In this document: positions 56,100 to 56,160 of the stretch, in pieces
How the letters are laid out: each line of letters opens with the position of its first letter
How positions within the stretch are numbered: position 1 is the stretch's first letter
Origin: Escherichia coli
Lineage (GTDB): Bacteria > Pseudomonadota > Gammaproteobacteria > Enterobacterales > Enterobacteriaceae
Assembly (NCBI RefSeq): GCF_050920415.1
Contig: NZ_CP169309.1
Reading direction: 5' to 3' (one strand)
DNA length: 64,000 bases
Position numbers and translations under genes: made by a program
The notes under the pieces: generated by a model
What the model was told of the DNA's origin: nothing
Databases searched by the model: none
The model's input: only the letters and a program-made list of their open reading frames with translations

Positions 56100-56160
56100 G
56101 GTTTTAGTTATACGGCTTTAGTTATACGCCAGCCCGTATAACTAAACGTATAACTAAAAA
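56100..56160. repeat. Putative integrase arm-type sites near the tRNA-proximal end
   Basis: Four copies of GTATAACTAAA (two inverted, two direct); the same motif recurs at the distal end (45505..45578). Confidence 0.45.

Follow-up and report, generated by a model that had tools for sequence, protein, structure and literature searches.

Repeats on both arms of the att region of a proL-integrated Escherichia coli satellite are predicted arm-type sites of its P4-family integrase

The attP of phage lambda carries the arm-type sites P1, P2 and P'1-P'3, which are bound by the N-terminal domain of Int. P4 Int binds near the int start and so represses its own gene, as cited in PMC2951348, and for IntS of KplE1 (the IntS/TorI system at argW) autoregulation of int was shown experimentally (PMC2951348). 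The same paper predicts a class of autoregulated integrase genes in which the tRNA and int share one orientation, the att arm sites lie over the int promoter and the intergenic region measures 208-228 bp (PMC2951348). According to PMC6092414, PICIs of Gram-negative bacteria have the gene order int-alpA-primase and a dedicated att site; for EcCICFT073, the same paper reports that an int-attP segment is sufficient for integration, that spontaneous excision is detected and that AlpA does not control the expression of int. In the searchable literature we found neither an integrase nor an att site described as specific to proL.

The only tRNA gene in the window (the whole 64-kb stretch of E. coli DNA analysed here) is tRNA-Pro(GGG), proL, identified by ARAGORN and the K-12 annotation at 56290-56366 on the minus strand. 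It adjoins yejM/lapC, and the far side of the island borders yejO (42782-45376). The empty proL/yejO site of K-12, in which attB reads ...GGGATTTTTGGTCGGCACGAGAGGATTTGAACC..., aligns across both junctions and does so exactly at the two core copies, which bears out the island boundaries of the original prediction. The core corresponds to the 3' strand of the proL acceptor, CCA and 2 further nt; the tRNA is whole at the int-side junction and the insert between the att copies measures ~10.8 kb. An annotated copy with 99.8% identity is present in E. coli OkiPb01679, from whose annotation the int start (56071) was taken. Its gene order from the tRNA side to yejO is integrase, small hypothetical protein, HTH regulator, Icd-like remnants, DUF4222 protein, DNA primase, ClpP-like prohead protease/major capsid fusion and PerC. 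Pfam domains detected in the island are AlpA (PF05930), the D5_N/DUF5906 primase, PerC and the ClpP/capsid fusion. The order int-alpA-pri/rep, the satellite size and the dedicated att site are all present, and by its sequence we classify the element as an E. coli satellite of the PICI type.

The protease/capsid fusion (47414-49303 on the minus strand, 629 aa, PF00574 and PF25209) is the only recognisable virion gene of the island, in which no portal or terminase gene was recognised. The related proL islands L004 and L090 carry instead a set of separate capsid, decoration and small-terminase genes. Two further repeats were seen in the cargo. The first is a 98-nt direct repeat (47311-47408 and 49850-49947, 79% identical), each copy of which follows a minus-strand gene (the protease/capsid fusion and the ORF 49966-50217, respectively) and ends in a GC-rich hairpin with a T-run; it may be a duplicated terminator or regulatory cassette. 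The second, at 46792-46876, consists of two 41-nt direct repeats, each with the palindrome GCAAATTTGC, between the divergent ORFs 46322-46750 (plus strand) and 46874-47155 (minus strand), and these look like operators.

At no more than one mismatch, GTATAACTAAA has eight matches in the 64-kb window; 100 dinucleotide-preserving shuffles gave 0.56 on average and never more than 3, so that none reached eight. Seven of the eight are confined to two stretches of 56 and 71 bp beside the two att core copies (Table 1), and the remaining match, at 27866, is isolated, has one mismatch and is consistent with chance. The original prediction had placed four copies in mixed orientation between the integrase gene and the tRNA, and there are indeed four, all exact and two on each strand. 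It had also placed the motif near the distal att repeat, at 45505-45578, where we detected two exact copies and one with a single mismatch (45508-45578). The sites on the int side lie 130-185 bp from the core (n = 4) and those on the far side 14-85 bp (n = 3). The tandem pairs of the two arms share one orientation, and the tRNA-side core shows no similarity to GTATAACTAAA. The copy at 45508 is partly conserved in relatives (GTGTAACTTCA in L004 and CTGTAACTGTG in L005) and is, on these comparisons, the weakest candidate arm site.

Table 1. Features of the att region and of the genes that bear on it, with coordinates in the window
Feature	Position	Strand	Details
P-arm sites 1 and 2, GTATAACTAAA	56103-56113, 56117-56127	-	Exact; opposite in orientation to the tandem pair; 31-55 bp upstream of the int ATG
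P-arm tandem pair, GTATAACTAAA	56136-56146, 56148-56158	+	Exact; 12-bp start-to-start phasing; 129 bp to the core
P'-arm tandem pair, GTATAACCAAA (one mismatch) and GTATAACTAAA	45556-45566, 45568-45578	+	12-bp phasing; 62 bp to the core
Core-proximal P'-arm single copy, GTATAACTAAA	45508-45518	+	Exact; 14 bp to the core
P arm	56072-56287		Reaches from the int start codon to the core; holds the four arm sites, the TYCGGYG array, the IHF-consensus match and the island terminator
P' arm	45494-45605		Block kept among islands with this integrase family, whatever the cargo
Island intrinsic terminator	56216-56243	-	From the terminator scan; reads out of proL, directly downstream
IHF-consensus match, AATCAAGTGATTA	56224-56236		Inside the terminator (loop); one of only 6 matches in 64 kb
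TYCGGYG direct repeats, five copies	56182, 56192, 56256, 56266, 56276 (span 56182-56282)	+	10-bp phasing
tRNA-side att core, TTTGGTCGGCACGAGAG	56288-56304		proL 3' end including CCA, plus 2 nt; K-12 empty-site alignment
Distal att core, TTTGGTCGCACGAGAG	45478-45493		One base shorter than the tRNA-side core; K-12 empty-site alignment
AlpA-family HTH	54109-54315		Pfam PF05930
P4-family tyrosine integrase, 413 aa	54830-56071	-	PF13356, PF22022, PF00589

When the two island ends are joined as in the excised circle, they form an attP of ~330 bp (56072-56304 followed by 45494-45605). Its order from int outward is the ATG at 56071, 31 bp, the inverted sites, the tandem pair, 129 bp, the core and the P' arm. 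Between the ATG and the island terminator, the interval from 31 to 87 bp upstream of the int start codon is taken up by the four P-arm sites; the only room for a promoter that is free of the terminator lies upstream of them. On the other side, homology to L004, L005, L006 and L090 stops at 45601-45605 in every comparison, and most matches in a wider E. coli search stop near 45605; since the homology ends there regardless of cargo, we take this position as the outer edge of the P' arm. The stem of the island terminator is conserved in relatives, with substitutions that preserve pairing, and the native proL terminator (AAAAAACCAACCG...GGTTGGTTTTT) is left at the distal junction (45441-45469). 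No sigma-70 promoter was found in the P arm by a consensus scan, and a relaxed scan of the arm gave only a weak candidate, TAGTCA-17-TATAAG, within the 129 bp between the tandem pair and the core.

The P arm also holds the TYCGGYG array, and a related pair with starts at 54334 and 54344 (54334-54350) lies directly upstream of the alpA-like gene. The spacing, typical of recombination directionality factors (RDFs), at both the att site and this gene suggests that the AlpA-like protein may bind att as well as its own promoter, and the TYCGGYG repeats are candidate RDF sites. The motif is only loosely conserved in L006, although the AlpA protein there is identical.

The two att cores differ by one base, and the deficit of the distal copy might impair excision. 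Across the related islands L004, L005, L006, L089 and L090, the distal core shows indels between TTTGG and CACGAGAG (TCGG, TCG, TCC, TC or nothing), and the tRNA-side core of the same islands is always intact. Either the crossover falls in TTTGG(TC) and the variable bases are island-borne, or the distal att decayed after integration. In two IMG/VR loci (L027 and L035), the sequence beyond the proL-side core leaves proL after ...GGATTTGAACCTCCGACCCCCGACACCCCATG for unrelated DNA, which suggests a second element at the anticodon-loop region of proL, i.e. tandem occupancy through two sublocations.

Residues 8-94 of the integrase match Arm-DNA-bind_3 (PF13356; E=4.8e-23, 81.5 bits against a cutoff of 27), and the central and catalytic domains follow. 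Aligned with P4 Int over 405 aa, the integrase shows 35% identity (E=4e-82), and it has the same three Pfam domains in the same order. Of 5426 complete E. coli genomes, 450 carry the integrase and 451 the P arm, and at the sensitivity of blastn the P' arm could be detected in 359; all three co-occur in ~8% of the complete genomes, and carriers of this integrase family include Nissle 1917 and ATCC 25922. Among the 80 loci with integrase relatives in IMG/VR, nearly all are provirus cut-outs that begin exactly at the int ATG and end short of the distal arm. They thus lack the P arm and mostly the P' arm, and the informative loci are L021, L027, L030, L033-L035, L042 and L059. A more distant homolog, with 55% identity to Int, is encoded by a Klebsiella phage that integrates at ssrA (L007, an unverified and unannotated record); upstream of its int lies an inverted repeat of its own (TTTTAGGCACCT/AGGTGCCTAAAA).

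The locus shows every sequence-level feature expected of arm-type sites, together with a P4-type att architecture. The GTATAACTAAA repeats are very probably arm-type sites for the integrase that the island itself encodes, a heterobivalent tyrosine integrase of the P4 family. The original prediction had read their placement in the same way, and sequence comparison supports it through the P4 layout, the PF13356 domain and the co-variation of the sites with int. In the excised circle, the two repeat clusters would flank the 16-17 bp core that matches the proL 3' end. The N-terminal domain of Int is predicted to occupy the arm sites and its C-terminal domains the core, while host IHF would bend the P arm, and the resulting intasome would integrate the ~10.8 kb satellite into proL. 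Excision would use a subset of the sites and a directionality factor. The P-arm sites, directly upstream of int, are well placed for Int to repress its own gene as KplE1 IntS and P4 Int do; by analogy with these systems, autoregulation through the int-proximal sites is plausible.

The motif is kept on both arms in islands that have different cargo and an integrase of the same family, namely L004 in Nissle 1917 (96% identical at the amino acid level) and L005 in GS04 and L089 in 23CRST013 (both 84%). The P'-arm tandem pair was found in L004, L005, L021, L033 and L034, and in L021, L033 and L034 a type A integrase is paired with type A P' sites, which have A at position 6. The inverted sites of the P arm are conserved in L004 and read GTATAGCTA/GTGTAGCTAAA in L006 and L090. 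Type B islands have heterogeneous sites (GTATAACTAGA, GCATAGCTAAA, ATATAACTAAA and GTATATCCAAA).

Closer inspection of L006 (int at 16001-17242) showed that it is a mosaic. Identity to the window is 98-100% over the alpA-like gene, the small ORF and the terminal ~320 nt of int and only 70-80% over the initial ~970 nt of int and the P arm, with a breakpoint in int near window position 55050-55100. The AlpA protein is identical, and the small ORF of L006 is identical from its residue 6 onward (from the shared AYGEGLQ). L090 is a similar mosaic in which AlpA and the small ORF are identical or near-identical. In both islands all six sites, four on the P arm and two on the P' arm more than 10 kb away, read GTATAGCTAAA, GTGTAGCTAAA, GTATAGCTTAA or GTATAGCTA, and every one of them has G at position 6, against A in the window. 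An IMG/VR locus with a type C integrase (L042), 99% identical to that of L006 over the N-terminal 100 residues, has the same type C P' pair, with G at position 6. Its AlpA and small ORF, too, are identical or near-identical, and it is an independent repeat of the pattern.

The two inverted and two direct copies on the P arm could also be read as acting mainly through nucleic-acid structure, with no protein partner, either as a cruciform or, in the leader RNA of int, as a long hairpin that attenuates or stabilises the transcript. The minus-strand transcript of 56060-56170 is predicted to fold at -36.9 kcal/mol (z = -5.0; none of 200 shuffles folds as well), a U-run (CCCUGUUUUUU) follows the hairpin ~15 nt upstream of the int AUG, and the concerted changes in L006 would keep the pairing. 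However, L006 lacks the U-run, and the stem, rich in AT, is not called by the terminator scan. Structure also leaves unexplained the P'-arm copies, which are in direct orientation 10.6 kb away and co-vary with those of the P arm, and the 12-bp tandem geometry that is common to P4 and an unrelated integrase module (L002, see below). We regard structure as the main role of the repeats as improbable. If the hairpin is transcribed, the folding prediction indicates that it could add a role at the RNA level beside Int binding, for example as a leader attenuator or stabiliser.

The repeats might instead be operators or sites of another island protein, either the AlpA-like HTH protein, as RDF or activator, or the product of the small ORF between int and alpA. 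The island does encode an AlpA-family HTH, RDFs bind repeated sites on att arms, and four of the copies lie in the int regulatory region. Yet L006, with its identical AlpA and a small ORF identical from residue 6, has a different base at position 6 of all repeats on both arms, and its only differences are in the N-terminal ~320 codons of Int and in the arms. The TYCGGYG repeats, with their 10-bp phasing and their second occurrence upstream of alpA, are also the better candidates for RDF sites, and in EcCICFT073 int expression is not under the control of AlpA (PMC6092414). Because AlpA and the small ORF are identical but the repeats are altered, the comparison argues against AlpA, the small ORF or the primase as the partner that sets the specificity and ties the motif to the N-terminal part of Int; we judge an operator role for these proteins highly improbable.

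A natural swap of the integrase was found in E. coli OkiPb01678 (L002; NZ_AP042495.1, 4014353-4031737), where cargo ~98% identical to window 45642-53250 sits in an island between clpS and cspD. Its PF13356 integrase is 21% identical to the window Int, and GTATAACTAAA is absent from L002 at up to one mismatch. Both ends of the island have instead TTAACTACACC in tandem pairs phased at 12 bp, and one pair immediately precedes the int start of L002. Its module has its own att core (GATAACTATCAT-type) together with ACGAACA repeat arrays. Whole int-att modules have, as judged from these sequences, evidently been exchanged among these satellites. The swap bears on a role of the repeats as replication iterons or packaging signals, for which one could cite the ori/crr repeats near attP in P4 (X51522) and the iteron-type origins of PICIs (PMC6092414). 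In L002 the primase, the DUF4222 gene and the cargo are ~98% identical, yet the motif is wholly absent and follows the integrase; moreover, the integrated state splits the copies between the two island ends, and we consider such a role extremely unlikely. The iteron and AlpA-operator explanations were thus rejected on the L002 and L006 comparisons. An AT-rich 11-mer might also recur by chance in intergenic DNA that is itself AT-rich, as the flanks here are, and the isolated one-mismatch match at 27866 would fit this; chance has, however, a negligible probability and is refuted by the shuffles and by an arrangement that is conserved in hundreds of genomes and varies in concert.

With the repeats read as arm-type sites of Int, the mosaic structure of int in L006 points to the exchange of the N-terminal part of int and attP as one cassette. 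In its full form, the proposal is that the N-terminal ~320 codons of int, the P arm, the core and the P' arm form one exchangeable specificity cassette, homologously recombined among E. coli PICIs, in which the sites were retuned from A to G with the Int arm domain and strand exchange takes place within TTTGG(TC). We put this forward tentatively and consider it somewhat doubtful. If true, the cassette would be contiguous only in the excised circle and would represent a natural reprogramming of arm specificity; strand exchange would occur at or beyond the CCA end, and the tRNA-like segment CACGAGAG would be island-borne P' sequence.

The original prediction also called for an excision junction containing the repeats. 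One attP-type junction of this kind is present in a relative from IMG/VR (UViG_2695420855_000011, L030) with a 96%-identical integrase, in which four P-arm sites...CCGGTGGGCGATTTGGTCGGCACGAGAGTATTTTAATT...CGTATAACCAAACGTATAACTAAAA are contiguous, without the tRNA and in the predicted P-core-P' order. Single-N joins occur in the scaffold, whose first 423 nt are an exact duplicate of the int 5' end, and a head-to-tail tandem fits this equally well; L030 was accordingly set aside as proof of a circle. Circle or tandem, either would need Int-type recombination at the core. The other collections searched gave no further junction: phage records had no match to the reconstructed 345-nt attP, and in the 5426 complete E. 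coli genomes none covered at least 80% of it. A scan of viral contigs for the exact attP pattern again returned L030 alone, and a metagenome scan for attP returned one unrelated chance match (L092).

Read as arm-type sites, the repeats would locate the functional attP used by an integrase family that targets proL and occurs in ~8% of complete E. coli genomes. The island boundaries are confirmed to the base. The natural variants of site and integrase, with A or G at position 6, could serve the study of arm specificity or the design of orthogonal integration vectors. Otherwise the machinery is that expected of a PICI-type satellite and leaves current understanding unchanged.

Among the known systems compared, P4 (X51522), whose Int/Vis system integrates at leuX, has the most similar layout. 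In P4, one inverted copy of the annotated 'attP arm sequence repeat' (3915-3926) overlaps the int start, where the window has two inverted copies. The 12-bp tandem pair on the int side (3942 and 3954; 3942-3965) lies 112 bp from the P4 core, compared with 129 bp in the window, and the pair on the far side (4151 and 4163; 4151-4174) lies 53 bp past it, compared with 62 bp; in both elements the far-side pair has the same orientation as the int-side pair. The P4 core measures 20 bp (4078-4097) and corresponds to the leuX 3' end, whereas the window core measures 16-17 bp and corresponds to the proL 3' end, both including CCA. The motif differs (TGCCCCC-type in P4, GTATAACTAAA in the window), as does the target (leuX against proL), and the window has in addition the weak core-proximal copy on the P' arm. 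The window element lacks sid, psu, delta and alpha genes of the P4 type and carries alpA, a D5-type primase, PerC and the protease-capsid fusion. The tandem geometry with 12-bp phasing is shown by the unrelated L002 module too.

Like lambda, the locus combines a heterobivalent Int, a repeated non-core motif on both arms within ~200 bp, tandem P' sites and, between arm sites and core, a match to the IHF consensus. Unlike lambda, the N-terminal domain is PF13356, attB lies in a tRNA 3' end and the sites differ in number and orientation; int is also transcribed away from att, so that the arm sites fall in its own regulatory region. As in the 'STI' modules of KplE1 and HK620, proL and int have the same orientation with the arm sites between them, over the int regulatory region; the intergenic region measures 218 bp here and so falls in the 208-228 bp range of the predicted class, but the integrase subfamily and the motif are different, and here the promoter is only a weak computational candidate. 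Finally, the island resembles E. coli PICIs such as EcCICFT073 (PMC6092414) in its gene order, its size class (~10-15 kb), its dedicated att site and its accessory PerC, and differs from EcCICFT073 in carrying the fusion gene of ClpP protease and major capsid protein.
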